Of a stretch of 64,000 nt of DNA, positions 1 through 40,413 are shown piece after piece. How positions within the stretch are numbered: the first letter of the stretch is position 1; each line of letters opens with the position of its first letter. The notes below the pieces were generated by a model that saw only the letters and a program-made list of their open reading frames with translations, had not been told where the DNA came from and made no database searches. The position numbers and the translations under genes were made by a program. The stretch is from Candidatus Saccharicenans sp. (lineage in GTDB: Bacteria > Acidobacteriota > Aminicenantia > Aminicenantales > Saccharicenantaceae), in assembly GCA_024653215.1 (NCBI GenBank), contig JANLFU010000004.1, positions 29,574 to 93,573 of the forward strand. Reading direction: 5' to 3'.

Positions 1-480
1 GCCCCGGCCATCGAGTACAACTATTTCCCCTACTCGGAATCAACCCGGCGCCAGCTGCGCTTCCTGTACCGGGTGGGCTTCAACCTCAACTACTACCGGG
101 AGGAAACCATATACGATAAGACCCGGGAAGCACTGCTGGGCGAAACGCTCTCGGTCACCCTGGAAGTCAAGGAACCCTGGGGTAACGTCTATGCCTCGCT
201 GGAAGGCTTTCACTATTTTCATGATTTCAGCAAGAACCACCTGGTCTTCAACACCAGCCTCAACCTGAGGCTCTACCGCGGCTTTTCCGTGGGAATTTCC
301 GGCCGGTTTGCCAAGATTAAGGACCAGATTTACCTGGCCAAGGGCGACCTGAGCCTGGAGGACATCCTGCTGCAGAGGAAAGCCCTGGCCACGGCTTACA
401 GCTACGGGATCTATCTTGGTGTAAATTATACTTTTGGTTCCATCTATTCCGGGGTGGTCAACCCCAGGTTCGGCAATTAA
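1..480 (+). CDS. Outer-membrane beta-barrel protein, C-terminal fragment. The ORF is open from the window start in the same frame.
   Basis: Open frame from position 1 to stop at 478-480. Alternating beta-strand pattern with a C-terminal aromatic-rich end (…VNPRFGN). N-terminus lies outside the window. Confidence 0.45.
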   Translation, partial: APAIEYNYFPYSESTRRQLRFLYRVGFNLNYYREETIYDKTREALLGETLSVTLEVKEPWGNVYASLEGFHYFHDFSKNHLVFNTSLNLRLYRGFSVGISGRFAKIKDQIYLAKGDLSLEDILLQRKALATAYSYGIYLGVNYTFGSIYSGVVNPRFGN

Positions 481-803
481 TGGCCTGAAGGGCCTGACCC
501 CTGGCAATTCTAAAGTTGAGGACCGGCCCGGCAGAGGAGTTTCTTTTTGCGACTGATCGACTGTGAGTTTCCCCGGCCCGTGCCTTCAGGGCGAATGATT
601 GATTCGATTATCGGTTTTTTTGCTTCTTTTTACGTTTCCGTTTCTGGTCTCTGCCGTGGACGGCTATCTTTAACCCCGGCTTAGATTAATAGTCTTTAAT
701 TTCCCAGGAGCGGAGTCATCAATTAAGTTTTTAGATTAAATTATTCTTATCCTGCTAAATTAAGTTACGAGGCCCAGCCTCGGGACAAGATTAGTTCCCG
801 CAC

Positions 804-2159: not shown

Positions 2160-2221
2160 GTTTCAAACCTGCCTCTAAAAAAATTTTTTCTATGTTATCA
2201 GGAAAGGAAAAGGCCTGTCCA

Positions 2222-4066: not shown

Positions 4067-4194
4067 GATTTTTCCCTCACCACCCGAAGTTTCACAGAAA
4101 TTTCAAAAATTACTACCAGCCCGACCTGATTTCTTATATAAATCTATATCAGGTTGACCCGCGAGGGCAACCGATAAAAATCGTGGAGCGCAAG

Positions 4195-4536
4195 ATGCAG
4201 AAGCCTGACTGGATGGAAGAATTTCCCGGAGCCATCACCGTGACCGATGATGAAGGAAAGATCATCTACATGAATAAGAAGGCGGCTCAAACCTTCGAGG
4301 CCGAAGGCGGCTTGGCCCTCATCGGAAGGAATATAATGGATTGTCACCGGCTGGAGTCGCAGGAAAAAATAAAAAAAATACTGGAAAGCGGGAAACCGAA
4401 CATTTACACCATCGAGAAAAAGGGTCAGAAAAAACTCATCTTTCAAACGGTTTGGACTGAAGCCGGCCGGGTCCGGGGACTGGTTGAGCTCAGCCTGGAA
4501 ATTCCCACGGCCATGCCCCACTTCGTCAGGGATTAA
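4195..4536 (+). CDS. Small PAS-domain protein
   Basis: PAS-like core (ITVTDDEGKIIYMNKKAAQTFE…GRNIMDCH). GGAG RBS 7 nt upstream of the ATG at 4195. The ORF track starts at GTG 4183. Confidence 0.5.
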   Translation: MQKPDWMEEFPGAITVTDDEGKIIYMNKKAAQTFEAEGGLALIGRNIMDCHRLESQEKIKKILESGKPNIYTIEKKGQKKLIFQTVWTEAGRVRGLVELSLEIPTAMPHFVRD

Positions 4537-4594
4537 GCGGTCCATTAATAATCAGGTCGGAGAAACCGACCTCGCGCTTCTAAGACAGCGGGTC

Positions 4595-4984
4595 TCAGCC
4601 AGACTCTTTTAAAAAATCTTTCAGGCGCCGGTATTCTCTCTCCAGGGCCTCCAAAGCCTCCCTGGCCGTTTTCAGGTCCTGGTTCTGTCCGGCCTGTTCC
4701 ATCTTCCAGGCCGCTTCCCTCAGGGCCGGAAGGCTCAGGTTGGCCGAGGCTCCTTTCAGGTAATGTCCGGCTTCCCTGATGACCTGGAAGTCTTTCTCCT
4801 GGACGGCCTTTTCCAGCTCGTCGTATTTCTTTTGGAATTCCTCATCATAGATGCCCAGCAACTCCTGGAGGAAGGCTTCATCTCCGCCGATTCTTTCCAG
4901 CGCTTCCTTGCGGTCGATGGGTGCAGGGGCGCTATTTTTTCCTGCCATCCCTATCCTCCTTCCTTTTTTTATTATCCGAATCAT
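4595..4984 (-). CDS. Histidine phosphotransfer (Hpt) domain protein
   Basis: Hpt signature HYLKGASANLSLPAL (HxxKGxxxxxG). Lies immediately downstream on the same strand of the hybrid kinase. Confidence 0.6.
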   Translation of the reverse strand: MIRIIKKGRRIGMAGKNSAPAPIDRKEALERIGGDEAFLQELLGIYDEEFQKKYDELEKAVQEKDFQVIREAGHYLKGASANLSLPALREAAWKMEQAGQNQDLKTAREALEALEREYRRLKDFLKESG

Positions 4985-5065
4985 TAATTATTACCATCCT
5001 GTCCCGGCCCAGCTTCTTGGCCAGGTACCGAGCCCGTTCAGCCGTCTTAATAAAAACTACAGATA

Positions 5066-27039: not shown

Positions 27040-28287
27040 ATGGCTTTTCCAGATAGCGTGCGGGAATTATACCAGGCCCAGCTCAAGGCCCTGCAGGAGG
27101 GCGGGCTGTTCAAGGAAGAAAGGTTCATTCATTCGCCACAAGCGGCCGACATCGAGGTGGAATTTCCGGTCGGTTCTTCGCTGAAGAAGGTCATAAACAT
27201 GTGCGCCAACAATTACCTCGGCCTGTCCAGCCATCCCGAGGTGATCAAGGCTGCCCACGAGGGGCTGGAAACCCGGGGCTTCGGAATGTCCTCGGTGCGC
27301 TTTATCTGCGGCACCCAGGACATCCACAAGGAGCTGGAAAGGAAGATGACCGAGTTCCTGGGTACTGAGGATACCATCCTCTTCCCGTCCTGCATGGATG
27401 CCAACGCCGGGGTATTTGAGGCCATCCTGACCAAGGATGATGTCATCATCTCCGACCGGCTGGTTCATGCCTCGCTGATCGACGGCATCAGGCTGTGCAG
27501 CGCCATGCACGATACCTTCAAGCATTCCGACATGGCCCACCTCGAGGAAAAGCTCAAGATGTACCAGGACAAGAGGCTGCGGCTGGTGGTGACCGACGGC
27601 GTTTTCTCGATGGACGGTGATACGGCCAAGCTGGACCAGATGGTCGAGCTCTGCGAAAAGTACAACGCCATGCTGCTGGTTGACGATTCCCATGCCTCTG
27701 GTTTCATCGGGAAAACGGGGCGGGGGACCCACGAGAAGTACGGGGTCATGGGCAAGATTGACATCATCACCACCACCTTCGGTAAGGCCCTCGGCGGGGC
27801 CACCGGCGGCTGCGTGTCCGGAAGGCGGGAAATCGTGGAGATGTGCCGGCAGCGGGCCCGGCCGTACCTGTTCTCCAACACCATCGCCCCGGTCATAATC
27901 GTGGGCATCCTCAAGGTGCTGGAGATTCTCTCGGCCACCACCGAGCGCCGCGACAAGCTGGAGAAGAACACCGAGTACTGGAGAAAGGGCCTGAAGGAAG
28001 CCGGCTTCATCCTGAAGGAAGGCGATACCCCGATTGTCCCGGTCATGCTGTTCAACGCCAGGCTGGCCCAGGAATTCTCCAAGGCTCTCTACGAGGAAGG
28101 CATTTATGCCATCGGCTTCTTCTTCCCGGTTGTTCCTCAGGGCCAGGCCAGGATCAGAACCCAGATTTCCGCAGCCCACGAAATCCACCACCTGGACAGG
28201 GCCCTGGAGGCCTTCATCAAGGTCGGGAAGAAGTTCGACATCCTCCACAAGACCAAGCAGGAAATCGTAGAAAAATACGGGATGTAA
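27040..28287 (+). CDS. kbl: Alpha-oxoamine synthase, closest to 2-amino-3-ketobutyrate CoA ligase (glycine C-acetyltransferase)
   Basis: Extended identity with Kbl-type sequences: GLFKEER…CANNYLGL…VRFICGTQDIHKELE…DGVFSMDGD…RPYLFSN…FFFPVVPQGQARIRTQISAAH. The PLP lysine lies in TFGKALGG. Confidence 0.8.
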   Translation: MAFPDSVRELYQAQLKALQEGGLFKEERFIHSPQAADIEVEFPVGSSLKKVINMCANNYLGLSSHPEVIKAAHEGLETRGFGMSSVRFICGTQDIHKELERKMTEFLGTEDTILFPSCMDANAGVFEAILTKDDVIISDRLVHASLIDGIRLCSAMHDTFKHSDMAHLEEKLKMYQDKRLRLVVTDGVFSMDGDTAKLDQMVELCEKYNAMLLVDDSHASGFIGKTGRGTHEKYGVMGKIDIITTTFGKALGGATGGCVSGRREIVEMCRQRARPYLFSNTIAPVIIVGILKVLEILSATTERRDKLEKNTEYWRKGLKEAGFILKEGDTPIVPVMLFNARLAQEFSKALYEEGIYAIGFFFPVVPQGQARIRTQISAAHEIHHLDRALEAFIKVGKKFDILHKTKQEIVEKYGM

Positions 28288-28445: not shown

Positions 28446-28901
28446 AAAAATTATGCCTTTGACGGGAGGCTTCTGGCTGAGTATGATGGATATGGGAATT
28501 GCCTGCGTGAGTATATCTACATAGGGGCGAAGATGGTGGCTGAGTACCAGCCGGCTACGGGCAAGTATTACTACTACACCACCGACCAGATTAACTCCAC
28601 CCGGGTGGTGACGGATGATGAGGGTAACGTGGTGTATTCCGCGGTCCATGACCCCTATGGCGGGGTGCAGCAGACCTGGGTCAACACCTTCAACCCCGGG
28701 TGGAAATTTTCCGGCAAGGAGCAGGATGCCGAGTCAGGTCTCTACTACTTCGGGGCCCGCTACTACGACCAGAGCCTCTACCGCTTCCTCAGCCCCGACC
28801 CGGTGATTCCCACCGACCGGGCCCTTTACAACCCGCAGCGGTGGAATCTGTATGGGTATTGCGGAAATAATCCGATAAATTTTGTCGATCTAGATGGCCG
28901 T
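28446..28901 (+). repeat. RHS core-tip repeat copy A. It encodes …YAFDGRLLAEYDGYGNCLREYIYIGAKMVAEYQP…YYYYTTDQINSTRVVTDDEGNVVYSA…LYYFGARYYD…LYRFLSPDP…NNPINFVDLDGR.
   Basis: The frame opens directly after a stop at 28443-28445, with no start codon at the homology boundary. Nearly identical nucleotide and protein sequence recurs at the head of each downstream toxin ORF. Confidence 0.8.
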
Positions 28902-29441
28902 ATTTTAGTTCCGGTAAACAATATTGCAGACGCTACTATTGCTGCGAGATATAAGTACCTTGATAATAGGTTTTTGAGCAAACTTTCTGATGTCTTCTTC
29001 TGGCTTAGCGAAAGCGGTATCGATATCATAATTACCAGTATGTATAGACCGGCGGCTTTTCAGGCCGAGTTGAGAAAGCAAAACCCGGCCAACACCGCGA
29101 AAGGCATAAGTTATCATCAGACAGGCTGGGCGATAGATATATCCTGGGCAAATTTTTCAGAAGAAAAATTCAAGGAATTCGTTGATTATTGTAAATCCAG
29201 AGGTTTTATAGTCATTAAAGAGACGCGCGTTAACAGTGACGGTACCACCTCAGTATGGATACACATAAGCATAGATGACCCTAAGAAAAAATCTTCGAAG
29301 GCCGCAAGTTCAGCGGAACGACTTTTCCACTTATATAACAGTGCCATTTTTAATATGATAAATAGTTTTTTTGAGTTGATGATGTCACAGGATCCTTGGT
29401 TTGGAATGGTGACTGCACCGTATGAGCAATACATGATTTGA
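28533..29441 (+). CDS. Orphan RHS C-terminal module A: RHS core tip fused to an M15/LAS-type (VanY-like) peptidoglycan peptidase toxin domain
   Basis: After the …NNPINFVDLDGR junction, the C-terminal 180 aa contain SYHQTGWAIDIS (SxHxxGxAxD) and VWIHISID (WxH). These are hallmarks of M15 D-Ala-D-Ala / L-Ala-D-Glu peptidases. The toxin domain is AT-rich, unlike the repeat. Confidence 0.6.
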   Translation: MVAEYQPATGKYYYYTTDQINSTRVVTDDEGNVVYSAVHDPYGGVQQTWVNTFNPGWKFSGKEQDAESGLYYFGARYYDQSLYRFLSPDPVIPTDRALYNPQRWNLYGYCGNNPINFVDLDGRILVPVNNIADATIAARYKYLDNRFLSKLSDVFFWLSESGIDIIITSMYRPAAFQAELRKQNPANTAKGISYHQTGWAIDISWANFSEEKFKEFVDYCKSRGFIVIKETRVNSDGTTSVWIHISIDDPKKKSSKAASSAERLFHLYNSAIFNMINSFFELMMSQDPWFGMVTAPYEQYMI

Positions 29442-29462
29442 ATCACAAATTAGGAGAAATGG

Positions 29463-30800
29463 ATGAAAACGCGAGCAATTATTTTTTTGGCATCGATGCT
29501 AACATTAAATTCTTTAACTCTTTCGGCGTCGTCGCCAACCTCTTTTGATGATTTAATCCAGTGGGCAATCTTAAGGGCAGAAACAAATATCAAATATAAG
29601 ATCGGGAGCTATACAGATTATATTCAAGTCTGGTACGACTTAACCTCATTGATTCCAAGAATAGAAAATGCAGAGCTGCGAGCCAGAGCTGAATTCTTGC
29701 GGTTAAAAGCTATTGAACAGGGATTGTGGCTATTACAGGGGAGTGGTCTCGAAGGACAAGAGATCAGGCCTGAGGGGGAGGCCTGGCTTAAGGCTATCGG
29801 CGAATATATTTATTTAGCTGGTCCAGATTGGCCATGGAATAGATGGTCAATACGGCCTGATATATGGTGGAAATACTGCGACCTTTATTCGGCAACTTCT
29901 TTTTCCGATGATTTTGCCTGGGAGGCGGCCAGCGAAGACCTGCCTTATGAATGCGAGGGCGATTTGGTTTGCGAGGTAGAAAAGATTAATAGGACTTACG
30001 GACGTTATCTGAATAAATTTCCTCAGGGGAAATATTATCGTCTGGCACTGGAGAGAATTTATAATTTCCTTGTTGTCAGGGTTCCTGAATTAGGATTCGA
30101 GAGCATAAAAAAGGAGGATTTCAGCCCAGAGGTATGGGATGAATTAGATGGAAATCTAAGATCGCTATACGGGGTTATTGTAAAGACGGATACTGAGAGT
30201 AAAGACGAGTATAGCTATTCTGTTTTGTCAAACTTCGAGCGGGTGTTTGGAGATGTGGTTAAAGATAAGAAGTCAAGCCTCCCTGCTATTGATAAAAAGA
30301 GCGAAGATTCGAACTTATATTCTGGATTGTCGAGGACCAATTTTAATATTTTGGATCAGCCGCCAGAAATAGCCATGGCCCTTTGGAAGAAACTTAAAAA
30401 CGAGCAAGCCGAGACGAAGAATCAAAACCAACTGGGCTTAATCGAGTTAGAGGAATTGATATGCCTTGAGAAAATGTTGTCAAGCCGCACAGTTGAGGAT
30501 CTCCTATCTGGTAAGGTTCTTGAAGCGGCGGATGTTTCACTAATTGAAGGAAAACATGTCAAGCATGAAGCTTTATTGGACCTGCATAAGAAGTTCAAAA
30601 ATCAGGCCGTATCCGATGACATTGCTTTTTACTTAACGCAAAACACATTCAGCCGACCAGGTACCAGTTCTTATACAGGCATTAGTGCTTCCATGATAAT
30701 GAGGGAAATAAATGAGAAAGAAGGGCTTTACCTGAGGCTTCATCCAAGGGGTAAATATGTTCCTATATGCCTTTTAATATTATCGAATCGATGGGGATGA
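29463..30800 (+). CDS. Secreted (signal-peptide) protein, candidate periplasmic immunity protein for module A
   Basis: 445 aa. N-terminal signal peptide MKTRAIIFLASMLTLNSLTLSAS. Low GC. Lies immediately downstream of toxin A. Confidence 0.45.
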   Translation: MKTRAIIFLASMLTLNSLTLSASSPTSFDDLIQWAILRAETNIKYKIGSYTDYIQVWYDLTSLIPRIENAELRARAEFLRLKAIEQGLWLLQGSGLEGQEIRPEGEAWLKAIGEYIYLAGPDWPWNRWSIRPDIWWKYCDLYSATSFSDDFAWEAASEDLPYECEGDLVCEVEKINRTYGRYLNKFPQGKYYRLALERIYNFLVVRVPELGFESIKKEDFSPEVWDELDGNLRSLYGVIVKTDTESKDEYSYSVLSNFERVFGDVVKDKKSSLPAIDKKSEDSNLYSGLSRTNFNILDQPPEIAMALWKKLKNEQAETKNQNQLGLIELEELICLEKMLSSRTVEDLLSGKVLEAADVSLIEGKHVKHEALLDLHKKFKNQAVSDDIAFYLTQNTFSRPGTSSYTGISASMIMREINEKEGLYLRLHPRGKYVPICLLILSNRWG

Positions 30801-30997
30801 TAAGCGGCAAAAACCCGCTCGGAATTAAGGCCTCATTTGAACCCGGGGATCAGTCATATGAAGTTGAGCTAGCTAAGCTTGGCGAGGAATTGAAAACTTG
30901 TCAAAAGGAAAACGAGAATCTTAAAATCGCGAAGCAGGCCCTAGATGAGTATCAGGGGCTGAAAACTTATAGTAAACCCGATGAATTTTTAAGATGA
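30767..30997 (+). CDS. Small hypothetical ORF (76 aa) between cassettes A and B
   Basis: ORF overlaps the end of the previous gene by 34 nt. No recognisable motif. May be a cassette remnant. Confidence 0.15.
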   Translation: MPFNIIESMGMISGKNPLGIKASFEPGDQSYEVELAKLGEELKTCQKENENLKIAKQALDEYQGLKTYSKPDEFLR

Positions 30998-31038
30998 ATA
31001 AGGGAGAGTTCATAATTGGAAGGTTAAATGATGTAAGA

Positions 31039-31425
31039 TAAAACTTAGGGGCGAAGATGGTGGCTGAGTACCAGCCGGCTTCGGGCAAATATTACTACTA
31101 CACCACCGACCAGATTAACTCCACCCGGGTGGTGACGGATGATGAGGGTAACGTGGTATATTCCGCGGTCCATGATCCCTATGGCGGGTTGCAGCAGACC
31201 TGGGTCAACACCTTCAACCCCGGGTGGAAATTTTCCGGTCATGAGCAGGACCCTGAATCCTCCCTTTACTACTTCGGGGCCCGCTACTACGACTCTACTC
31301 TCTACCGCTTCCTCTGCCCCGACCCGGCATTTAATGTCTCTCTAATGAAAAGCGATATGCAACATTGGAACCTTTATTCTTATTGCAGAGATAATCCCTT
31401 AAACTTCATAGATTTTACCGGTTTA
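31039..31425 (+). repeat. RHS core-tip repeat copy B. Homology begins at …GAKMVAEYQPASGKYYYY…
   Basis: About 90% identical at protein level to copies A, E, F and G over YYYYTTDQINSTRVVTDDEGNVVYSAVHDPYGG…WKFSG.EQD…LYYFGARYYD. Confidence 0.8.
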
Positions 31426-31974
31426 TATTCATTTACTGTTCATGTAAATATTATAAGGCTCAGCTATGGGGCATTAGTTCCTGATAGCAGACCAGATCAT
31501 ATGATATGGATGAGGGGTGTGGGCCTTACCCTGTATCCATCCGGCAAAATTACCCCAACAATTGGAGATAATGGCAAAGCTGAATTAAAATTTGAACTCG
31601 ACTGCCATATTTATATTTTGCCTGACGAGCAATTGAAAAATTTTGGAACAGATTATGCTTCGGTAATAAAGCACGAAATGACTTATCATAAGGAGTTCGT
31701 TGAATTATGGGTTAGCATGTCGCTAAGTCGCATAGAAAAAAAGTGGAGAGAAGAGATGAAAAAAGATCCCCAAGAGGCCCTAAAAAATGCTTATAAAAGA
31801 TTTGAAAAAACAACGAAAACAGCCGAATGGATAAGCAACATACTCCACTTCGCATCTTTAAATCTATATATGGAAGTGGTGGCATCTTATTGGGATGAAA
31901 TAGATCGTGATTGGCTCGCATGGAAATACGATCCATATATGGCCTGGCTTTTAATGGTTCCTTATGCAAATTAA
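31057..31974 (+). CDS. Orphan RHS C-terminal module B: RHS core tip fused to an HExxH putative zinc-metallopeptidase toxin domain
   Basis: Junction …DNPLNFIDFTGL. The C-terminal domain contains VIKHEMTYH (HExxH). It shares architecture with the module D toxin domain. Confidence 0.55.
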   Translation: MVAEYQPASGKYYYYTTDQINSTRVVTDDEGNVVYSAVHDPYGGLQQTWVNTFNPGWKFSGHEQDPESSLYYFGARYYDSTLYRFLCPDPAFNVSLMKSDMQHWNLYSYCRDNPLNFIDFTGLYSFTVHVNIIRLSYGALVPDSRPDHMIWMRGVGLTLYPSGKITPTIGDNGKAELKFELDCHIYILPDEQLKNFGTDYASVIKHEMTYHKEFVELWVSMSLSRIEKKWREEMKKDPQEALKNAYKRFEKTTKTAEWISNILHFASLNLYMEVVASYWDEIDRDWLAWKYDPYMAWLLMVPYAN

Positions 31975-32013
31975 CCCGTTTCGAATGGGGTTGTGTATGA
32001 TGGAGAGCAAATT

Positions 32014-32424
32014 ATGAAAAAAGTTTTATCTATTCCCCTTATTACAATTATCATCCTTATTATTATCATTTTAGTTTATTGGATTTATGTATGGATCCAA
32101 GAAGATAGGTTAATGAAGAAGATAACCTCGATTGAAGAGGGGATGGATGAAGACGAAGTAATCCGGTTATTAGGGGAACCGAAGAGAGAAGTCCAGGTAA
32201 AAACTGATGAGATAACGAAGGGATGGTCAATACCCGGACAGGGGGATCTTGAAAGAGTGAAGAAAGAATATAAAGAGCTTGTAAGCTATGTGTATTATAT
32301 TAAAAGATACAACCTTATGAAATTGCGGGAACGGTTACCTGGGTCCATACACTCTATCTACATTGATCCGGCCTCAAGAAAGGTGGTATATGTGAAGAGC
32401 ATATTTATTATGTCTTATTGGTAA
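32014..32424 (+). CDS. Membrane-anchored BamE/SmpA_OmlA-like protein, candidate immunity protein for module B
   Basis: N-terminal TM (IPLITIIILIIIILVYWIYVWI). Then GMDEDEVIRLLGEPKRE, resembling the SmpA/OmlA GMT..V...LG.P signature. GGAGAG RBS before the ATG at 32014 (track start 31993). Paralogous to 34521-34985. Confidence 0.5.
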   Translation: MKKVLSIPLITIIILIIIILVYWIYVWIQEDRLMKKITSIEEGMDEDEVIRLLGEPKREVQVKTDEITKGWSIPGQGDLERVKKEYKELVSYVYYIKRYNLMKLRERLPGSIHSIYIDPASRKVVYVKSIFIMSYW

Positions 32425-33098
32425 ATATGTTTATTAAAGATATATCTGAATCCTCCCTTTATTACTTCGGGGCCCGCTACTACGACCCCGCGCTCTACCG
32501 CTTCCTTAGCCCCGACCCGGTGATCCCAACTGACCGGGCCCTCTACAACCCGCAGCGGTGGAATCTGTATGGGTATTGTTTAAATAATCCTCTGAACCTT
32601 TGTGATCCCGACGGCAGGGCGAGTGATTATGTACATTATGACCTTACCTATAAATTAGCCTTGGAAGCTGGTATTCCTGAGGATGAAGCCCGAATTATTG
32701 CTGAGGCCAACCGTAATGTTGACAAGGATTGGCGGACAAGTTCATTTAATCCTCTGGGACGCAGATTTCATTACCCTGATGCTTTTACTCTAAATTGGGC
32801 TTTGGATATTGCGTATAACACGAAAGACCCAGTTATGCTTGGATTTGCGTTGCACGTAATTCAGGATGCAATCTGGCATTTTAATTGGTTATTTAATCCG
32901 CTGGGGCATTTAATAGAATCTGTAGGAGATAAGGTTTTTGATTGGATCTGTTCTAGGTTAGGCGTATATCCAGACATCGAATTTGATCCAGATAGCCCAT
33001 ACTCAGCTTTTATTTCGTTGGATATACTCTGGTGGGTGAGATATGTGACATTTGATATATTGCAGGATTATAAAGCAAGAAAAGAGGCTTGTCGTTAA
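32418..33098 (+). CDS. Orphan RHS C-terminal module C: truncated core tip fused to a toxin domain of unknown type (H-x3-D-x3-H motif)
   Basis: Junction …CDPDGR. The C-terminal domain has conserved His/Asp clusters (DYVHYDL…, ALHVIQDAIWHFNW) loosely reminiscent of Zn-dependent phospholipase C / P1-nuclease metal sites. Start codon uncertain. Confidence 0.45.
   Translation: MVNMFIKDISESSLYYFGARYYDPALYRFLSPDPVIPTDRALYNPQRWNLYGYCLNNPLNLCDPDGRASDYVHYDLTYKLALEAGIPEDEARIIAEANRNVDKDWRTSSFNPLGRRFHYPDAFTLNWALDIAYNTKDPVMLGFALHVIQDAIWHFNWLFNPLGHLIESVGDKVFDWICSRLGVYPDIEFDPDSPYSAFISLDILWWVRYVTFDILQDYKARKEACR
32448..32618 (+). repeat. RHS core-tip repeat copy C, 5'-truncated. Begins at …ESSLYYFGARYYDPALYRFLSPDP…
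   Basis: Only the distal half of the repeat (LYYFGARYYD…NNPLNLCDPDGR) is present. Confidence 0.75.
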
Positions 33099-33117
33099 TG
33101 GATAAGAAGGTTGTGAA

Positions 33118-33684
33118 ATGAAACCGAGACTTAATTTAACAAACAGAAGGGTATTGTTATTCTTGTTATATTGGGGGTTTGGAATTAGCTTTTCTATCTT
33201 TGATGCAGCCTATGGGGTATTACTGATATTTTTCCCATGGGCTGCGTTGGTATTAGGGCTTTTAGTTCTACCGTCGATATTAATATCTAATAAGCTTGGT
33301 TTTCCAGACACCACTCTTCTTTTTGGTCGCATTGGTTTAGTAATGTCGTTATATTTCGTTGCCGTCCTATTCGTTGTGCTTAGTGTGCTTTATGTTTTTA
33401 TATTAAATCAACTAAATTTGAGCACAGGGAAGAACTCAAGGTATAAATTTCCTTGGCTGACTTTTTTATTCCATTTATCCGGGATTTTCTGTTCGATACC
33501 TCTATATATAGGTTTTATCAATTCAGATAAAGTAAATCTTTTACCTTTTGCCAAATATTATCAGATGTTTGCCTACCCGATCTTAGCGATGGCAACATTT
33601 TTATTTATTTATATTGACTGGCGGCTGGCAAGGGAAATAGCCGAAGATGAGAAACAAGAAGCGGAGAATAGGTCTCAGTTTTAG
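33118..33684 (+). CDS. Polytopic membrane protein (5-6 TM), candidate immunity protein for module C
   Basis: 188 aa, almost entirely hydrophobic helices. AT-rich. Lies directly downstream of toxin C. Confidence 0.45.
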   Translation: MKPRLNLTNRRVLLFLLYWGFGISFSIFDAAYGVLLIFFPWAALVLGLLVLPSILISNKLGFPDTTLLFGRIGLVMSLYFVAVLFVVLSVLYVFILNQLNLSTGKNSRYKFPWLTFLFHLSGIFCSIPLYIGFINSDKVNLLPFAKYYQMFAYPILAMATFLFIYIDWRLAREIAEDEKQEAENRSQF

Positions 33685-34516
33685 GAATCAAAAAATGATG
33701 ACTATTCTATTTCCTGAAAATGGGATTCGACAGACCTGGATGGGGGGCAAAGAGGCCGGAGCGAGTAATTCCGGAAAGGAGCAGGACCCTGAATCCTCCC
33801 TCTATTACTTCGGTGCCCGCTACTATGACCCCACGCTCTACCGCTTCCTCAGCCCCGACCCTCAACAGATACCTGCAATCGCTCGTTTTGAAATTAATCG
33901 ATTTAATAAATATTTTTTTGCTAATAATAATCCCATATCCTATTTTGAATTTAGTGGATTGTGGGCGATTATTCACAAAGAAACTAAGATTATTAACGCC
34001 AGCTATATGAGCTATCTGGGAAAAAGTATTGAAGGCAAGGATGTTTATATGAAAGGGTTTGGGATGACAAACGTCCTGCCCGAAGATTTGAAGATAGATC
34101 TATCTAAAGAAACAGGTATCACAGTTAGTGTGACCTTTACAATATTCATTTTAGCGAAAGAAGATATTCAGTGGAAGCAAGAAGACGCAATAGTAGGTCA
34201 TAATAACTACGAAAATGTACTCAGGCATGAGCTAACACATGTTTATGACATTCTTCTAATGGTGTCTTTAGCCCTGAACAAAATTGAGGCCCAGTGGAAG
34301 GCAGGAAAGATTTCTGATGAGGAGGCCAGAAAATTAGTTAATAAAGCCTTCATAAGGGCATCTAAAGCTTCAAGCAGCCTCAGAGATGACTGGGGAGTAG
34401 AATGGTTTAAGTGGCTCATCAATTGGTTTGAAGAACTGAAACCAGAACATAATTATTCAGCTTTTTGGGAATGGCTACTAACACCATATATTTATTTTCT
34501 TATGAAATGCAATTAA
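33647..34516 (+). CDS. Orphan RHS C-terminal module D: truncated core tip fused to an HExxH toxin domain (paralog of module B)
   Basis: The C-terminal domain contains LRHELTHVYD (HExxH) in a context alignable to module B (…FILAKEDIQ… vs …YILPDEQLK…). The track start at 33647 overlaps the previous gene. The true start is uncertain. Confidence 0.5.
   Translation: MRNKKRRIGLSFRNQKMMTILFPENGIRQTWMGGKEAGASNSGKEQDPESSLYYFGARYYDPTLYRFLSPDPQQIPAIARFEINRFNKYFFANNNPISYFEFSGLWAIIHKETKIINASYMSYLGKSIEGKDVYMKGFGMTNVLPEDLKIDLSKETGITVSVTFTIFILAKEDIQWKQEDAIVGHNNYENVLRHELTHVYDILLMVSLALNKIEAQWKAGKISDEEARKLVNKAFIRASKASSSLRDDWGVEWFKWLINWFEELKPEHNYSAFWEWLLTPYIYFLMKCN
33770..33961 (+). repeat. RHS core-tip repeat copy D, 5'-truncated. 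Begins at …SGKEQDPESSLYYFGARYYD…
   Basis: Distal half of the repeat, ending …NNPISYFEFSGL. Confidence 0.75.
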
Positions 34517-34520
34517 TCCA

Positions 34521-34985
34521 ATGACTATAAAAATAAAGAAAAAAACGTTCATATTTATAATAGCGTTAGCGTTAGTTATTGGTGCTTTTGCATATTTGGG
34601 CATATTGGAAATGCTGGATAAAACTCTTGTCAGGCGAGCAGAGTTATTGAAAGCGGGGATGACAGAAAGTGACGTGGTAAATATCTTGGGAAAACCCCGG
34701 GAGTTCGAGCTTATAGACTTAAGAGTGGCAGAAAATAGAGGTCTGCCTAAGGCTATTTTGAGTCGGATTGAAAAATACAACCAGGCAATAAAATGGTGGG
34801 CATATTATGTGCCGGGATATCTAGTCAATCCACCGTTTCTTTTCCATCCAGGGCCTTACAGGACAATTGTTGTTGTCTTTATTGATCATAATGGACATGT
34901 GGTTCACTCAAGTATTGGTATAACAATTAGAAGAATAAAGCCTTTTGAATTACTAATGAAAGATCGCGATACAAATCAGAATTAG
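34521..34985 (+). CDS. Membrane-anchored BamE/SmpA_OmlA-like protein, candidate immunity protein for module D (paralog of 32014-32424)
   Basis: N-terminal TM (FIFIIALALVIGAFAYLGIL). Then GMTESDVVNILGKPRE, the same motif and position as in the module B partner. Confidence 0.5.
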   Translation: MTIKIKKKTFIFIIALALVIGAFAYLGILEMLDKTLVRRAELLKAGMTESDVVNILGKPREFELIDLRVAENRGLPKAILSRIEKYNQAIKWWAYYVPGYLVNPPFLFHPGPYRTIVVVFIDHNGHVVHSSIGITIRRIKPFELLMKDRDTNQN

Positions 34986-35075
34986 TAATAAAGGGTCTAA
35001 AAATAGGGAAAACGTTTGCTTTGTAACTTTATCTAGGCTGTTTGAGTTCCAAGAATTTTGAAACAGAGATTGTGG

Positions 35076-35500
35076 ATTGATATGATGGCTATGGGAATTG
35101 CCTGCGTGAGTATGTCTACATGGTGGCGAAGATGGTGGCTGAGTACCAGCCGGCTACGGGCAAGTATTACTACTACACCACCGACCAGGTTAATTCCACC
35201 CGGGTGGTGACGGATGATGAGGGTAACGTGGTGTATTCCGCGGCCCATGATCCCTATGGTGGAGTGCAGCAGACCTGGGTCAACACCTTCAACGCCGGGT
35301 GGAAATTTTCCGGCAAGGAGCAGGATGCCGAGTCAGGTCTCTACTACTTCGGTGCCCGCTACTATGACCCCACGCTCTACCGCTTCCTCAGCCCCGACCC
35401 GGCGATCCCCTCCGACCGGGCCATCTACAACCCGCAGAGGTGGAATTTATACGGGTATTGCCTGGGCAACCCGATAAATTATGTTGATATGGCCGGTGAG
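35076..35500 (+). repeat. RHS core-tip repeat copy E. Begins at …YDGYGNCLREYVYMVAKMVAEYQP…
   Basis: Full-length copy of the repeat, ending …GNPINYVDMAGE. Confidence 0.8.
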
Positions 35501-36034
35501 CAAGCAGAAAGCTCTCGAAAGCTGATAATAACCAGGACTATTTCTGGACCTACAGGAACGTTCGGTCGTTTTAAATTTGAGGGTAAATACATCACCATAG
35601 AAGGGGAGACGCTTGAACTTCCCTGGAGAAACAACATAAATTATATAAGCCGTATTCCTGAAGGGGAATACGAGGCGATATTACATTATTGGGATGATAG
35701 GGATATATGGGCCTTGTTGCTCCAAGACACTGGATCTCGTAAAGGGATTTACATCCACGAAGGGAACACGACAAAAAACACCAAGGGGTGTCCGCTTATT
35801 GGCCAGCGGTTTGATAACCAGGGGAGGCTATCAGGAGGCAGGGCACTTAGAGAGGCCATTACTGCTGATTATTTAATTGACCAGGTCTTAAGCGCCTGGT
35901 TTAATCTTGACAGGCTGAGCCGCACTGTTCAAAAGGCAACTGCTAAGATTGAAAGAGGGGAAGTGTATTCTGAGTGGGCATGGATTGGATTTACTCTAGT
36001 CATTAACGGCGTGCAATATTATTTTTATTTTTAA
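35120..36034 (+). CDS. Orphan RHS C-terminal module E: core tip fused to a YkuD-like (L,D-transpeptidase-fold) candidate peptidoglycan-targeting toxin domain
   Basis: C-terminal domain motif IYIHEGNTTKNTKGCPLIG (H-x9-T-x-G-C) resembles the His…(S/T)xGC catalytic motif of L,D-transpeptidase-like effectors. Homologous to the module F toxin domain. Confidence 0.45.
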   Translation: MVAKMVAEYQPATGKYYYYTTDQVNSTRVVTDDEGNVVYSAAHDPYGGVQQTWVNTFNAGWKFSGKEQDAESGLYYFGARYYDPTLYRFLSPDPAIPSDRAIYNPQRWNLYGYCLGNPINYVDMAGEQAESSRKLIITRTISGPTGTFGRFKFEGKYITIEGETLELPWRNNINYISRIPEGEYEAILHYWDDRDIWALLLQDTGSRKGIYIHEGNTTKNTKGCPLIGQRFDNQGRLSGGRALREAITADYLIDQVLSAWFNLDRLSRTVQKATAKIERGEVYSEWAWIGFTLVINGVQYYFYF

Positions 36035-36048
36035 TAAGGGGAACAAGA

Positions 36049-36726
36049 ATGAAATGGCCAGGCCTAAAATATCTTAATTTTCTGATTGCGTTTCCAATAC
36101 TAATGATGTCGTTGACTTACCCTCTGGAGAATACGTCGGTCGCTTATCCAAACCAGGTTAATAAGATGCTAACCTTAGAAGAAGCAAAAGAAATTATAGA
36201 TATTTTCTTAAACGACCCAACTGAGGCAAACTTTAAGATTGTACAAGAGACGATATATCCTTTTCTGAGTGTAGTCGATCAGGAATCAACACCGTTTCAA
36301 GACAAATTGTTTTCTTATGTACTTACTCGGGAGCCGTTCTGGATTTTTGAGTATGAAATATTTGCGGGTAATAGGTTAATGGCCTTGTTTGCCAGGAGGC
36401 TCTTGGATGTTTCAGACGGGGCTTATGCGAGCATGTTGTTTAAACTGTTCGGAAAGTTGAGTCGCCTTAATCCCGAGTTATTCCTGACCATGTTTAAGGA
36501 TGACATAAAAAAGCCGGTTTTAGAATTGGCAGTTACAGAATCAATTTTTCTCGAGGGAACAGAAAAATATCAAAGATATGACAGGTATGATCTAATCCAG
36601 AGGATAAAAGCATTAAGGACGGTAACCAATCCGGAACTAAGAAATATAAGAGATTATTGCATCTTATTATTGGAAAGAGAATTGAAGGAAAACGGGCTAT
36701 ATCAGATGGGATATTCTCGTAAGTAG
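36049..36726 (+). CDS. Secreted protein (signal peptide), candidate periplasmic immunity protein for module E
   Basis: Signal peptide MKWPGLKYLNFLIAFPILMMSL. C-terminal region …RIKALRTVTNPELRNIRDYCILLLEREL aligns with the module F partner (…RIKALETVDCPIYLDLRNECIKILEKEI). Confidence 0.5.
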   Translation: MKWPGLKYLNFLIAFPILMMSLTYPLENTSVAYPNQVNKMLTLEEAKEIIDIFLNDPTEANFKIVQETIYPFLSVVDQESTPFQDKLFSYVLTREPFWIFEYEIFAGNRLMALFARRLLDVSDGAYASMLFKLFGKLSRLNPELFLTMFKDDIKKPVLELAVTESIFLEGTEKYQRYDRYDLIQRIKALRTVTNPELRNIRDYCILLLERELKENGLYQMGYSRK

Positions 36727-36737
36727 AGTTTAGCCTA

Positions 36738-37592
36738 ATGATCTTAAGAGATTTTCCTTACACCGCCGACCAGGTTAACTCCACCCGGGTGGTGACGGAT
36801 GATGAGGGTAACGTGGTATATTCCGCGGTCCATGATCCCTATGGCGGGTTGCAGCAGACCTGGGTCAACACCTTCAACCCCGGGTGGAAATTTTCCGGTC
36901 ATGAGCAGGACCCTGAATCCTCCCTTTACTACTTCGGGGCCCGCTACTACGACCCCGGCCTCTACCGCTTCCTCAGCCCCGACCCGGTGATTCCCACCGA
37001 CCGGGCCCTTTACAACCCGCAGAGGTGGAATCTGTATGGGTATTGCCTCGGCAACCCGATAAATTTCGTAGATCCCTTCGGGGATATTACGATTAGAATA
37101 TGGCGGACACTTTATAACAATTATGCCACATATGGGGTTTATGAAATCGAGCTTGGAGACACGAGAATCTGGGGTTTTACAATGGAGCCGGCGAAGGGCA
37201 AGGGAAAAGGACCGATACCGGCAGGGATATATGAGGCTGACTGGTTCTATTCAGAAGAAAATAAAGAACTCAGGATTAAAATTAATGACATCCCGAACTT
37301 CAAAAACATAAGAATTCACAAAGGAAATTACCCTGGCGATACGACCGGATGCATTTTAGTAGGGAAAGATGTTAATACAGGAGGCGATCTGTTAGGCTCG
37401 GGAAAAGCGATGGCAGAAATAAGAGGGGGAATTATGGATTATCAGATGGGTGCTCTGAAAGAATATATAGCTGATGGCGAATTAGATCTTGAACTTTTGC
37501 ATCGGATTTTTGATATGCAAGTTATCATATATGATATTCCGAAGGGTAGCGTAACGGTAGAAGTTACATCTATACGCTATCTTATGTATTAA
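36738..37592 (+). CDS. Orphan RHS C-terminal module F: core tip fused to a YkuD-like candidate toxin domain (paralog of module E)
   Basis: IRIHKGNYPGDTTGCILVG (H-x9-T-x-G-C). Alignable with module E across …IPEGEYEA… / …IPAGIYEA… and the HxGN…TxGC core. Confidence 0.45.
   Translation: MILRDFPYTADQVNSTRVVTDDEGNVVYSAVHDPYGGLQQTWVNTFNPGWKFSGHEQDPESSLYYFGARYYDPGLYRFLSPDPVIPTDRALYNPQRWNLYGYCLGNPINFVDPFGDITIRIWRTLYNNYATYGVYEIELGDTRIWGFTMEPAKGKGKGPIPAGIYEADWFYSEENKELRIKINDIPNFKNIRIHKGNYPGDTTGCILVGKDVNTGGDLLGSGKAMAEIRGGIMDYQMGALKEYIADGELDLELLHRIFDMQVIIYDIPKGSVTVEVTSIRYLMY
36759..37085 (+). repeat. RHS core-tip repeat copy F. Begins at …YTADQVNSTRVVTDDEGNVVYSAV…
   Basis: Copy truncated within the YYYTTDQ segment, ending …GNPINFVDPFGD. 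Confidence 0.8.
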
Positions 37593-37610
37593 AGAGAGGG
37601 GGACGTCAAG

Positions 37611-38294
37611 ATGATGCTGGATTTTATAAAAGCCTTATCAAAGCTCTTATTAACTTCATTTTTTCTTCTTTTAATATCCGATTTAATGATTGCTCAGGCA
37701 GGAGCGGGGGGCGCACAAGATGCAATCATTCTTGATTGGGATAAGTTAAGGTCAGCGGTACAGAGATACAATTTAAAGCCGAACGAGGATAATGCGAGGG
37801 CGATATTAGAATCGATTCCTGAAAAAATGCCTGATAAGCAGGTTGGGGATGATGAACGTGCTTTAGATTATATGCTTGATAAGAGTCCAATAATTAAGAA
37901 GCAGATTGAGTCGGGGAATGAGTATCTGGCTGAAGCTGCATTCAGAATGTATTTTATTGTGCTTCCTGGTGATGCTCTGGAAGAGCTTACCTTAATGCTC
38001 TGCAAGATGCTGGAAAAGAAGCCCGAGCTATATCTTAGCTTGTTAAAAAAATATAAACCTCAATTTCCATGGTATCTCGAGTACCCATTGCTGATGACCG
38101 AGTTTGATGAAAAATTTGATGCAGAGCCCGATGGCCGGATTAGGCGTGACATTAAGATATATCGGCGGCGGATAAAGGCCTTAGAGACAGTGGACTGTCC
38201 TATATATTTAGATTTAAGGAATGAATGCATAAAGATTTTGGAAAAAGAGATTAGTCTGTTTGAATCGAAACTAAAAATTGAGTTGACTTCTTAA
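37611..38294 (+). CDS. Secreted protein (signal peptide), candidate immunity protein for module F (paralog of 36049-36726)
   Basis: Signal peptide LLLTSFFLLLISDLMIAQA. C-terminal similarity to the module E partner. GAGAGGGGGA RBS. Confidence 0.5.
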   Translation: MMLDFIKALSKLLLTSFFLLLISDLMIAQAGAGGAQDAIILDWDKLRSAVQRYNLKPNEDNARAILESIPEKMPDKQVGDDERALDYMLDKSPIIKKQIESGNEYLAEAAFRMYFIVLPGDALEELTLMLCKMLEKKPELYLSLLKKYKPQFPWYLEYPLLMTEFDEKFDAEPDGRIRRDIKIYRRRIKALETVDCPIYLDLRNECIKILEKEISLFESKLKIELTS

Positions 38295-38295
38295 T

Positions 38296-38715
38296 ATGCC
38301 AGAGGGAATTCCGTTCGCAATAAGCCAGAATAAATTCAAGATCGTGGAGAGGCTGGGTGCTTTTGAGAGGGTAAGGGAAAGGTTAAGAATCAGGTGGGAA
38401 GAAGCCGGGGTAGATGGGTCTATTTCAGGCTACAGGCCTTCAAGTGGGGCGGCCATTGACAGGCTGAAGAGGATGGATGGCTCAAAGGTAGGCTCGGGCG
38501 GGGACTTACGGACGATGTCTGTGGGGACCGTCGGGATATATTACATCTATGCCTTTGACGGGAGGCTTCTGGCTGAGTATGATGGATATGGGGATTGCCT
38601 GCGTGAGTACATCTACATAGGGGCGAAGATGGTGGCTGAGTACCAGCCAGCTACTGAAAAGTATTACTACTATACCACCGACCAGATTAACTCCAGCGGG
38701 GGTGGTTCTATGTAA
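38296..38715 (+). pseudogene. RHS stub G: retains a longer upstream YD-repeat-like segment (…GIYYIYAFDGRLLAEYDGYGDCLREYIYIGAKMVAEYQPATEKYYYYTTDQINS) then terminates with SGGGSM*. No toxin domain.
   Basis: Homology to the shared repeat stops exactly at TTDQINS, where copies A/B/E continue with TRVVTDDEG. Followed by a stop. Interpreted as a recombination or deletion scar. Confidence 0.5.
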
Positions 38716-38891: not shown

Positions 38892-39545
38892 ATGAACGCG
38901 CTTGAGCTTCGAAGCCGAATTCAGACTGAAATATTTGACTACCAGACTCTAACCAGTGCGCTCGGCAGCCTGTCATCTCCAAGGGATAAGATTACAGAAC
39001 TGCTGAGGAGCGGGATAATTATAAGGGTTAAGAAGGGGCTTTACGTATTTGGCGAAAAGTATCGTAAGCATGCCTATTCCAGGGAACTGCTGGCCAACCT
39101 TATATATGGCCCATCCTATCTCTCTCTTGATTATGCCCTGGCCTATTACGGCCTCATACCGGAAAAGGTTGAAGTCCTGACCTCGGTTACCCCCAATCGA
39201 TCTCGCCGATTTGCCACGCCGGTTGGTCTTTTCACTTACAGGCAGATACCGCATGGTGCTTACATAAATGGCCTGACCAGGGTTGAGGCCGATAATGACC
39301 AGGCCTATCTAATTGCCATTCCCGAGAAGGCCCTGGCTGATAAGGTCGCTTCCCTGCGCGGGCTCGCTTTCAATTCAACCAGGGAAGTCGCTCGTTTTCT
39401 CGAGGAAGATTTGAGAATAGATCTGGAGGCGCTGCGTTCTTTCTCAGTGGCCAAACTTGAAGAATTTGCCGCCGGGTATCGTTCCCGCAAGCTTAGGTAC
39501 CTGGCTGCCATGGTAAAAAAACTGGCCGCGAACCGGGAGAAATAA
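38892..39545 (+). CDS. abiEi: AbiEi-family antitoxin / transcriptional regulator (type IV TA, abortive-infection type)
   Basis: N-terminal wHTH-like region with …IIIRVKKGLYVF… …LANLIYGPSYLSLDYALAYYGLIPE…, typical of AbiEi_4/COG5340 proteins. Precedes the nucleotidyltransferase gene with a 1-nt gap. Confidence 0.65.
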   Translation: MNALELRSRIQTEIFDYQTLTSALGSLSSPRDKITELLRSGIIIRVKKGLYVFGEKYRKHAYSRELLANLIYGPSYLSLDYALAYYGLIPEKVEVLTSVTPNRSRRFATPVGLFTYRQIPHGAYINGLTRVEADNDQAYLIAIPEKALADKVASLRGLAFNSTREVARFLEEDLRIDLEALRSFSVAKLEEFAAGYRSRKLRYLAAMVKKLAANREK

Positions 39546-39546
39546 A

Positions 39547-40413
39547 ATGAATGAAGCCGTCAGGCAAATGCTGGGGGGATATGAAATTAAATCCCCGGGC
39601 GATTCGCTCTGGGCCTTGCGCGAAATAATTCAACAGGTGGCCCTTCTCGGGCTGTGGAGAAGCAAGTTTTTTGAAAGGGCCGCGTTTTATGGGGGGTCGG
39701 CCCTGAGGATAATTTATGGGATCGACCGGTTTTCCGAGGACCTGGATTTCTCCCTCCTCGAGGCGGACCCGGCTTTCTGCCTGGCCGATTATGGCCAGGC
39801 CCTGAAGCGGGAGCTGCTTTCCTTTGGGTTTTCTGTTGAAGTTGAAAGCAAAACAAAAAAGGAGAAAACAACCGTTCAGTCGGCCTTTCTTAAAACCGAT
39901 ACCCGTGAGCAGATGATCTCAGTGGGAATTAAGCCTGAACTTGTTAAGCAGATCCCGCCTAACCAGGTGCTAAAAATTAAGCTCGAGGTCGACGTGACCC
40001 CGCCACCCGGATTCTCAACTGAGATGCGTTATCTTCTAAAACCGATTCCGTTTTCCGTAAGGACCTTTACCCTGCCGGACATGTTCGCGGGCAAGATGCA
40101 CGCGGTTCTCTGCCGTCAATGGAAAAGCCGGCTCAAGGGCCGGGACTGGTATGACCTGGTCTGGTTTACCGCTCATCACCCAGAGTTGAGATTATCGCAT
40201 TTAGAGCAGAGGATGCGCCAGACCGGTCACTGGAAGGGATCAAGTCCCCTGGACGAGAGCACTTTTCGAGAATTGCTGATTGGCAGGGTAAAATCGGTGG
40301 ATGTGGAGCAAATAAAGAGGGAGGTGGAGCCCTTCGTCAGCAATCCGGCTGTCCTGGAAGTCTGGTCGCGAGAATTTTTTCTGGATATCATAAAGCGTAT
40401 TAAAGTTATCTGA
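39547..40413 (+). CDS. abiEii: AbiEii/AbiGii-family nucleotidyltransferase toxin (DUF1814)
   Basis: GGSALRIIYGIDRFSEDLDFS matches the conserved N-terminal nucleotidyltransferase motif of AbiEii. 288 aa. Confidence 0.7.
   Translation: MNEAVRQMLGGYEIKSPGDSLWALREIIQQVALLGLWRSKFFERAAFYGGSALRIIYGIDRFSEDLDFSLLEADPAFCLADYGQALKRELLSFGFSVEVESKTKKEKTTVQSAFLKTDTREQMISVGIKPELVKQIPPNQVLKIKLEVDVTPPPGFSTEMRYLLKPIPFSVRTFTLPDMFAGKMHAVLCRQWKSRLKGRDWYDLVWFTAHHPELRLSHLEQRMRQTGHWKGSSPLDESTFRELLIGRVKSVDVEQIKREVEPFVSNPAVLEVWSREFFLDIIKRIKVI

Follow-up and report, generated by a model that had tools for sequence, protein, structure and literature searches.

We examined 64,000 nucleotides of DNA from Candidatus Saccharicenans sp. 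(Aminicenantes; assembly GCA_024653215.1, contig JANLFU010000004.1, positions 29,574 to 93,573; hereafter the window). Our subject is two adjacent cassettes, E and F, each of which comprises an open reading frame (ORF) that opens with the end of an RHS core and a smaller partner ORF immediately downstream. We favour, with a probability of about 0.72, a reading in which E and F are paralogous orphan toxin–immunity modules of an RHS locus: their C-terminal tips, both members of the Pfam family DUF5675, would be Cys-His enzymes of the YkuD/MEROPS C82 superfamily, and the downstream genes would encode their exported, cognate immunity proteins. An earlier sequence-only reading had taken the two tips for L,D-transpeptidase-like toxins with secreted partners; the four ORFs and the peptide strings from which it argued were all found where it had placed them.

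DUF5675 tips on two orphan RHS cassettes

The E toxin ORF (304 aa; 35120-36034; the island and all E and F features given here lie on the + strand) is matched at 100% identity by an NCBI entry, 'DUF5675 family protein', in which the start is set at the second Met (35132). The F toxin ORF (36738-37592) encodes 284 aa. Both begin with an RHS-associated core end recognized by TIGR03696 (Rhs_assc_core; cut-off 32.5 bits), with 78.6 bits for E (35120..35497, domain end at residue 126) and 76.8 bits for F, in which this domain is truncated at its N-terminus (36738..37079, domain end at residue 115). The F core/tip junction, NPINFVDPFG (nt 37053-37082), straddles the boundary between the two parts and is a good match to the PxxxxDPxGL-type self-cleavage motif; that of E, NPINYVDMAG (nt 35468-35497), is a degenerate version in which DP has become DM. 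Neither ORF (284-304 aa) includes a YD-repeat shell, and the core homology is common to the full-length rhs genes of relatives. With Rhs_assc_core directly before a variable tip, E and F fit the pattern of RHS C-terminal cassettes, and we call them orphan because the 64-kb window holds no full-length RHS gene.

When taken downstream of the NPIN[YF]VDxxG junction, the tips of E (178 aa; 35498..36034) and F (170 aa; 37080..37592) are 29% identical over 164 aa (E = 1e-10), which places the paralogy proposed in the sequence-only reading far beyond chance. Each tip consists of a DUF5675 domain and a C-terminal extension; in E, the DUF5675 core occupies tip residues ∼7-113 and the extension is a helix-plus-beta element of ∼65 aa. 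Against Pfam DUF5675 (PF18925; gathering threshold 26.7), the full ORFs scored 80.6 bits (E; E = 1e-22) and 71.1 bits (F; E = 9e-20), and the E tip alone gave E = 2.9e-23. Both also match PHROG 1501, a function-unassigned family (E = 3.4e-16 for F). A profile built from E, F and the tips of close homologues listed 120 homologues, essentially all of them DUF5675 proteins, most of which are stand-alone and ∼130 aa long, while few are fused to RHS. The 'distinct subfamily' suspected earlier is thus a family that already bears a Pfam name.

The candidate catalytic motifs are H213-E-G-N-T-T-K-N-T-K-G-C224 in E (HEGNTTKNTKGC; residues 213-224, nt 35756..35791) and H194-K-G-N-Y-P-G-D-T-T-G-C205 in F (HKGNYPGDTTGC; residues 194-205, nt 37317..37352). 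Their spacing is H-x7-T-x-G-C, i.e. a His-to-Cys offset of 11, and not the H-x9-T-x-G-C given previously. Conservation was counted in an alignment of 116 DUF5675 sequences that includes E and F (E-tip numbering). The invariant columns, all kept in both cassettes, were E40, I53, Y58, H87, G97, C98 and G102. As the His and Cys of the E/F motif fall in invariant columns (116/116 sequences, with an offset of 11 in 114/116), they are the absolutely conserved His and Cys of the family. The family motif reads [IV][LF][FIV]-H-x-G-N-x3-D-[TS]-x-G-C-I-L-[VI]-G; in 39/116 members the residue at −2 from the Cys is His, giving the canonical (S/T)HGC of L,D-transpeptidases. Cysteines at positions 52 and 60, which are present in most members, are absent from E and F, and the tails of E and F after the candidate catalytic Cys are ∼35 aa longer than usual (∼80 aa in E vs. 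a family median of 44).

DUF5675 is also encoded in 247 phage records, including Microviridae genomes of ∼5 kb; in genomes of this size the protein is a candidate for the lysis enzyme. The phages comprise Microviridae/Gokushovirinae (e.g. MH992181.1, PV067912.1 and MW202581.1) as well as Vibrio, Bacteroides, Campylobacter, Salinibacter, Ralstonia and Microcystis phages; wherever a host is named, it is Gram-negative.

DUF5675 and the YkuD/Tlde1 superfamily

In a Pfam scan of the 116 members, every sequence matched DUF5675, and the second most frequent family was Tlde1_dom (39/116, best E = 6.5e-5), followed by YkuD (5/116, best E = 0.0025). All Tlde1_dom cross-matches stayed under the 30.1-bit threshold (e.g. 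17.4 bits for the stand-alone member P0023); in two that were inspected, the matched profile positions span the catalytic-motif region. In addition, the two motifs P-x-G-x-Y and then H...[ST]xGC-h follow one another in DUF5675 as they do in YkuD, and the His, [ST], G, C and following hydrophobic residue of the canonical motif are all found in E and F.

A confident AlphaFold2 model of the E tip (predicted local distance difference test score, pLDDT, 88.7; predicted template modelling score, pTM, 0.81) has a beta-rich core, in which the His is predicted to lie at the end of one strand and the Cys just before the next. When this model was compared with the PDB by Foldseek, ranks 1-3 were all occupied by Pgp2, the YkuD-fold L,D-carboxypeptidase of Campylobacter. 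We take Csd6 to be the Helicobacter pylori homologue of Pgp2. Csd6, in turn, was reported to be the closest structural relative of Tlde1a (PMC9638812). Among predicted viral structures (BFVD), Foldseek retrieved DUF5675 phage proteins, among them an endolysin (E = 0.025) and a protein with the name 'L,D-carboxypeptidase/transpeptidase' (E = 3e-6). An independent 2026 preprint, which compared structures for the phage lysin candidate LysPd160, proposed that DUF5675 is 'C82-like', with significant differences noted (bioRxiv 10.64898/2026.04.11.717860).

Several results weigh against this kinship. E scored 13.6 bits against YkuD (PF03734; E = 0.1), below the threshold of 23.4 bits, and F gave no match; Tlde1_dom (PF10908) was matched neither by the E tip at E ≤ 10 nor by full-length E or F at E ≤ 1. 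The canonical motif HXX14-17-(S/T)HGCh does not occur as written, the offset being 11 and the −2 residue K in E and T in F, such that the second His of (S/T)HGC is absent. The Pgp2 match was itself weak (probability 0.96, E = 0.015, template modelling score, TM, 0.38, root-mean-square deviation 8.4), and the first 50 PDB hits of the E-tip model did not include Tlde1a (7UMA). Searches of PDB chains with the E tip sequence returned chance matches only (superoxide dismutase, staphopain), those with the profile of 116 DUF5675 sequences no match, and those with stand-alone P0023 nothing relevant. Likewise, hhalign of the DUF5675 profile against single E. coli DpaA, LdtB, LdtD and LdtE sequences gave probabilities below 1%; though not significant, these alignments were locally best over the P-x-G-x-Y and H...SxGC motifs. 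Finally, a literature search found no published biochemistry on any DUF5675 protein.

If the His...GC likeness to YkuD were convergent or due to chance, and DUF5675 an unrelated fold such as a non-enzymatic or cytoplasm-acting toxin, one would indeed expect direct sequence and profile searches of PDB chains to yield no YkuD protein and TM-scores to Pgp2 to be low. We nevertheless consider this highly improbable: weak hits obtained in three independent ways, from Pfam cross-matches, Foldseek against the PDB and BFVD annotation, point consistently to one superfamily and the preprint agrees with them, both hallmark motifs stand in YkuD order, and the partner proteins carry export-type N-termini, arguing for a target outside the cytoplasm. 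Collectively, several independent, individually weak lines agree that DUF5675 is related to YkuD/Tlde1 at the superfamily level, a relationship we regard as well supported, while membership of E and F in YkuD or Tlde1_dom proper is not supported. The YkuD/Tlde1 likeness of the sequence-only reading therefore stands for the superfamily (cross-hits, Pgp2 and the C82-like placement) and falls for the two Pfam families, whose thresholds are not reached; the structure comparison it had called for gave weak matches to the YkuD-fold Pgp2, with Tlde1a outside the top 50. Its remark that the H-to-C spacing is shorter than in canonical YkuD domains was right, and a short spacing is common to Tlde1/DUF2778, where it was likewise described as short relative to YkuD (10.1101/2020.02.18.954545).

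Partners with export-type N-termini co-vary with the tips

The gaps between toxin and partner ORFs are 14 nt (E) and 18 nt (F). The E partner (225 aa; 36049..36726) and the F partner (227 aa; 37611..38294) both have a basic residue at the start, then a hydrophobic segment of 15-17 residues, and then a predicted helical repeat domain. In the E partner, the hydrophobic segment spans residues ∼9-23 and the all-helical repeat domain residues 43-223; in the F partner, which belongs to the F-type subfamily, the N-terminal segment ends ...LMIAQA/GAGG. The two proteins are 29% identical over 167 aa (E = 7e-9), including a RIKAL...C-I block, so that the partner paralogy and common C-terminal block noted earlier are both borne out. 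Judged from their sequences, the partners are predicted to be exported or membrane-anchored through the N-terminal hydrophobic segment, with the bulk of the protein outside the cytoplasm. The signal peptides claimed for them hold as export-type segments, and may be either cleaved signal peptides or N-terminal anchors.

Shine-Dalgarno-like sequences precede both partner genes (AAGGGGA, 7-8 nt upstream of the 225-aa E start; GAGAGGGGGA upstream of the F start). The NCBI/JGI annotation starts the E partner at Met40 (186 aa), which omits 36049-36165 and drops the hydrophobic segment. We rejected this start and prefer the 225-aa version because of its Shine-Dalgarno sequence and because this N-terminus is conserved in homologues; the deposited gene call probably has the wrong start and thereby hides the export segment.

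Neither partner matched Pfam (and therefore none of the Imm or DUF2195 models of Pfam-A) or NCBIfam, and PHROGs yielded nothing meaningful. A word-indexed search found 18 relatives in E-type and F-type subfamilies, 17 of which have the N-terminal hydrophobic segment. By exhaustive hidden Markov model search, the family comprises at least 612 cluster representatives at E ≤ 1e-3, with 269 at E ≤ 1e-10; ten sampled members had no relevant Pfam domain. A strongly hydrophobic 12-mer is present in the first 45 residues of 104/112 members of single-domain size, vs. 1/112 in an internal control window. Lipoproteins were considered and rejected, as a lipobox-like string occurs in 1/112 members only. 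In an AlphaFold model of the E partner (pLDDT 80.9), a low-confidence N-terminal helix and linker are followed by the all-helical repeat domain, for which Foldseek returned only generic ARM/HEAT and designed helical repeats from the PDB (E ≥ 0.07). Some proteins of the family (within P0139-P0285) are 400-830 aa long and contain two to four tandem copies of the domain, possibly as fused poly-immunity proteins, and one 977-aa member also has tetratricopeptide (TPR) repeats.

A partner-family gene lies directly after a DUF5675-type RHS tip in 8/8 pairs from seven loci, that is, at every locus that could be read. These pairs are E and F of the window, L001, L026 (two pairs), L029, L031 and L034; the partner protein of the second L026 pair is also present in L027 and L028, and the L034 pair in L035. 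Divergence is matched between the two genes: toxins that resemble E (65-70% identity) have partners resembling that of E (54%), an F-like toxin (39%) has a partner of the F type (39%), and distant toxins have distant partners. Such co-varying adjacency is the pattern expected of cognate toxin–immunity pairs. The periplasmic immunity put forward in the sequence-only reading is consistent with this picture of partners that are predicted to be exported or anchored, consistently follow DUF5675-type RHS tips and co-vary with them. Separately, a related Aminicenantes metagenome-assembled genome (MAG; L006 10698-11349) has a homologue of the E/F partners that is split by a frameshift and lacks an adjacent DUF5675 tip; this looks like a decaying orphan immunity gene.

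RHS carriers and the state of the orphan copies

A DUF5675 tip on a complete carrier is found at L031, where a full-length RHS protein of 2,093 aa with DUF6531, RHS repeats, an immunoglobulin (Ig)-like insert and a DUF5675 tip is followed by a partner-family gene. Related MAGs (L006, L009) encode RHS proteins of ∼2,105-2,120 aa, the core ends of which are 76-82% identical to those of the window cassettes. The L006 protein (415-6777; 2,120 aa) has DUF6531, RHS repeats and an inserted Ig-like domain of the HYDIN/DUF1573 type; it starts with a classic Sec-type signal (MKKWANFLSFF...LFA/QS) and has no PAAR match. No secretion machinery was identified, which counts against our reading of E and F: the flanking genes examined are not those of a type VI secretion system (T6SS), and the genome was not surveyed. 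We suggest only tentatively, and with the odds rather against it, that DUF5675 and its unnamed helical-repeat partners form a widespread, undescribed toxin–immunity system on Sec-exported, PAAR-less, envelope-targeting RHS proteins, and that all six tips of the array described below act in the periplasm or at the membrane. If true, this would imply a route, independent of the T6SS, for the transfer of cell-wall enzymes from one diderm bacterium to another by an RHS cage.

Cassettes E and F have the appearance of reserve tips, to be deployed only after recombination with a main rhs gene, because the homology of E runs into an upstream stop and the F core is truncated, with no evident ribosome-binding site. 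Specifically, RHS homology continues in frame for 13 codons 5′ of the E ATG, up to a TGA stop; no clear Shine-Dalgarno sequence is evident upstream of the F toxin start, and no full-length RHS ORF is encoded in the window. These points weigh against toxins that are active in place, and the copies may be silent.

One could go further and regard both toxin ORFs as silent recombination relics, with only the partners under selection, as orphan immunity against the DUF5675-tipped RHS toxins of neighbours. The features just listed would fit, as would the strong Shine-Dalgarno sequences of both partner genes, the frameshifted L006 homologue without an adjacent toxin, and the existence of family proteins with two to four tandem copies. 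We judge this possible, though doubtful, for both toxin ORFs are intact and keep every invariant residue of the family, and two other assemblies contain the cassettes at 99.9% identity. Furthermore, orphan rhs tips can be reactivated by recombination, as at the Salmonella and E. coli rhs loci. In any case, silence of the copies would bear on their expression and not on the identity of the domain.

A proposed model for toxin action

In our preferred reading of E and F as toxin–immunity modules, a tip would come into use once it forms the 3′ terminus of a full-length RHS gene (∼2,100 aa; with a Sec signal in relatives), either in place or through recombination. It would be encapsulated in the RHS shell, freed by autoproteolysis and reach the periplasm of a neighbouring cell. 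By analogy with Tlde1a, the thiolate of the Cys (C224 or C205), with the His (H213 in E, H194 in F) as activating residue, would attack the L,D bond between meso-diaminopimelate and D-Ala of the stem peptides (mDAP3-D-Ala4), and the outcome would be carboxypeptidase and/or D-amino-acid exchange chemistry. Tetrapeptide stems, the donors in cross-linking, would be depleted and the wall weakened. In the periplasm of the producer, the downstream helical-repeat protein may bind its own toxin and block the active site.

The same fold and chemistry might instead serve another periplasmic substrate, as in a DpaA/LdtF-like amidase that detaches Braun lipoprotein or an endopeptidase of 3-3 cross-links. 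Transpeptidases, carboxypeptidases and amidases all occur among YkuD-fold enzymes; E. coli DpaA combines a short His-Cys spacing (IHGDCVSIGC) with a P-E-G-F-Y motif, on which the DUF5675 profile aligned best locally, and E and F are without the second His that Tlde1a has at H129. We nonetheless consider another substrate unlikely, given that Tlde1_dom cross-matches outnumber those of YkuD (39 vs. 5) and that the best match among solved structures is an L,D-carboxypeptidase, although neither point is decisive between substrates.

Comparison with known systems

The closest characterised toxin to the E and F tips is Tlde1, which with its immunity protein Tldi1 (Tae5/Tai5; PF10908, formerly DUF2778) is known from Salmonella Typhimurium. 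Like Tlde1, the tips would be small antibacterial toxin domains related to L,D-transpeptidases, and the His-Cys offset is short in both (10 in Tlde1a vs. 11 in E/F); in Tlde1 the H121A and C131A substitutions abolish periplasmic toxicity (10.1101/2020.02.18.954545). Peptidoglycan stem peptides in the periplasm are the target of Tlde1, which is encoded next to, and neutralised by, a Sec-exported immunity protein; some members of its family are fused to Rhs. In contrast, E and F belong to another Pfam family, lack the His of HGC and carry a C-terminal extension of ∼65 aa, with no Tlde1-type capping subdomain verifiable in them; their partners are helical-repeat proteins of ∼225 aa and not of the Tldi1/DUF2195 type. 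Also unlike Tlde1, they showed no T6SS/Hcp link (in the flanking genes examined, the genome not being surveyed) and their delivery would apparently be by a Sec-signal RHS protein in an Acidobacteriota-related lineage.

Canonical YkuD proteins (PF03734, MEROPS C82; LdtMt2, E. coli LdtA-E, Csd6/Pgp2) share with E and F the motif order P-x-G-x-[YF], H...[ST]-x-G-C-h and a beta-rich core, but their His and Cys are ∼20 residues apart rather than 11, and they are housekeeping proteins with accessory domains, whereas the domain in E and F would serve as a deployed toxin tip. The phage DUF5675 proteins (PHROG 1501; LysPd160) are of the same Pfam family and have the same invariant residues; unlike E and F, they are ∼130 aa long and most have the cysteines at 52 and 60, while E and F are set apart by the RHS-core fusion, the longer tail and the putative immunity gene.

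The arrangement of the cassettes resembles the orphan rhs-CT/rhsI arrays of Enterobacteria, in which tandem displaced tips keep core homology for recombination and each is followed by an immunity gene. The polymorphic-toxin framework of Zhang et al. (2012) reportedly contains L,D-peptidase toxins with Imm16/Imm57. Both differ from E and F in that the E/F partner family matches no Pfam model. Bioinformatic work had already pointed to fusions of Rhs with DUF2778 and to 'L,D-peptidase' polymorphic toxins paired with Imm16/Imm57, and L,D-peptidase tips on Rhs had been predicted (10.1101/2020.02.18.954545). L,D-transpeptidase-like toxins with periplasmic immunity and occasional Rhs fusion are thus already known, and no concept is overturned here; what differs here is DUF5675 as the putative toxin domain, a large uncurated family of putative immunity proteins, an apparently PAAR-less Sec-signal RHS carrier in an uncultured lineage and an array that looks envelope-directed.

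Should our reading of E and F be correct, it would supply a working functional hypothesis (a Cys-His peptidoglycan L,D-peptidase) for DUF5675, which is widespread in phages and many bacteria. It would also define a sizeable immunity family without a Pfam model, usable as a genomic marker for such toxins, and add a cell-wall-targeting Sec-signal RHS system from the poorly studied, uncultured Aminicenantes. To our knowledge, interbacterial antagonism in Aminicenantes is essentially unexplored.

The cassette array and its surroundings

E and F are the last two of six tandem orphan RHS C-terminal cassettes, A to F, in an island of low GC content (28481..38715; 0.40-0.47 vs. 0.55-0.59 in the flanks), which also holds their small partner genes and a truncated seventh RHS-core remnant. 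Each cassette is an ORF of ∼226-305 aa that opens with the RHS core end, followed by a small partner ORF. The DNA of the core ends forms direct repeats of 93-300 nt across the cassettes, with 60-94% identity; the E copy (35070-35369) is 94% identical to that of cassette A.

The tip of cassette A (28533-30800) matched DUF5715 (E = 4.8e-8) and, just under threshold, the VanY/M15 D-Ala-D-Ala carboxypeptidase family (E = 2.8e-4), and is therefore likely to be another cell-wall enzyme; its partner is a 445-aa protein with a signal-peptide-like start, and cassette A is probably another peptidoglycan-targeting module. Cassettes B and D (31057-32424 and 33647-34985) have paralogous tips (27% identity over 133 aa, E = 2e-8) with KHEMTYH and RHELTHV strings that resemble the HExxH motifs of metallopeptidases. 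Their partners, each with a transmembrane segment at the N-terminus and a faint BamE-like match, are 23% identical over 94 aa (E = 4e-7). With this second paralogous toxin/partner pair, the array holds two duplicated-and-diverged module pairs. Hydrophobic N-terminal segments are present in all six partners (A-D judged by eye), and the whole array thus appears envelope-directed. This sets it apart from the Rhs-fused T6SS effectors of Salmonella, which are reported to act mostly in the cytoplasm (PMC12994826).

Starting at 28481, the window has 99.9% identity to two public contigs, and the cassettes are kept in both assemblies. The left array junction differs in a JGI contig (L002 1-1728), which matches the window at 99.86% identity beginning at 28481 but carries, upstream of this position, an extra RHS cassette with two small ORFs; in the window, a kbl-like housekeeping gene (27040-28287) takes their place. 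The breakpoint near 28481 coincides with the start of the repeated RHS core, and the difference reflects either a true polymorphism created by recombination or a join made at the repeat during assembly.

At the right edge of the island, a 139-aa ORF (38296-38715) ends abruptly in a YD-repeat/RHS-core fragment (...YIYIGAKMVAEYQPATEKYYYYTTDQINS). Its DNA from 38548 to 38701 is 94% identical to the start of the cassette A core repeat, and it looks like a truncated seventh cassette. Directly downstream of the island (38892-40413) are genes for an AbiEi-like antitoxin (E = 4.8e-5, just under threshold) and an AbiEii nucleotidyltransferase toxin (E = 1.1e-31), which constitute a type IV toxin–antitoxin or abortive-infection pair.

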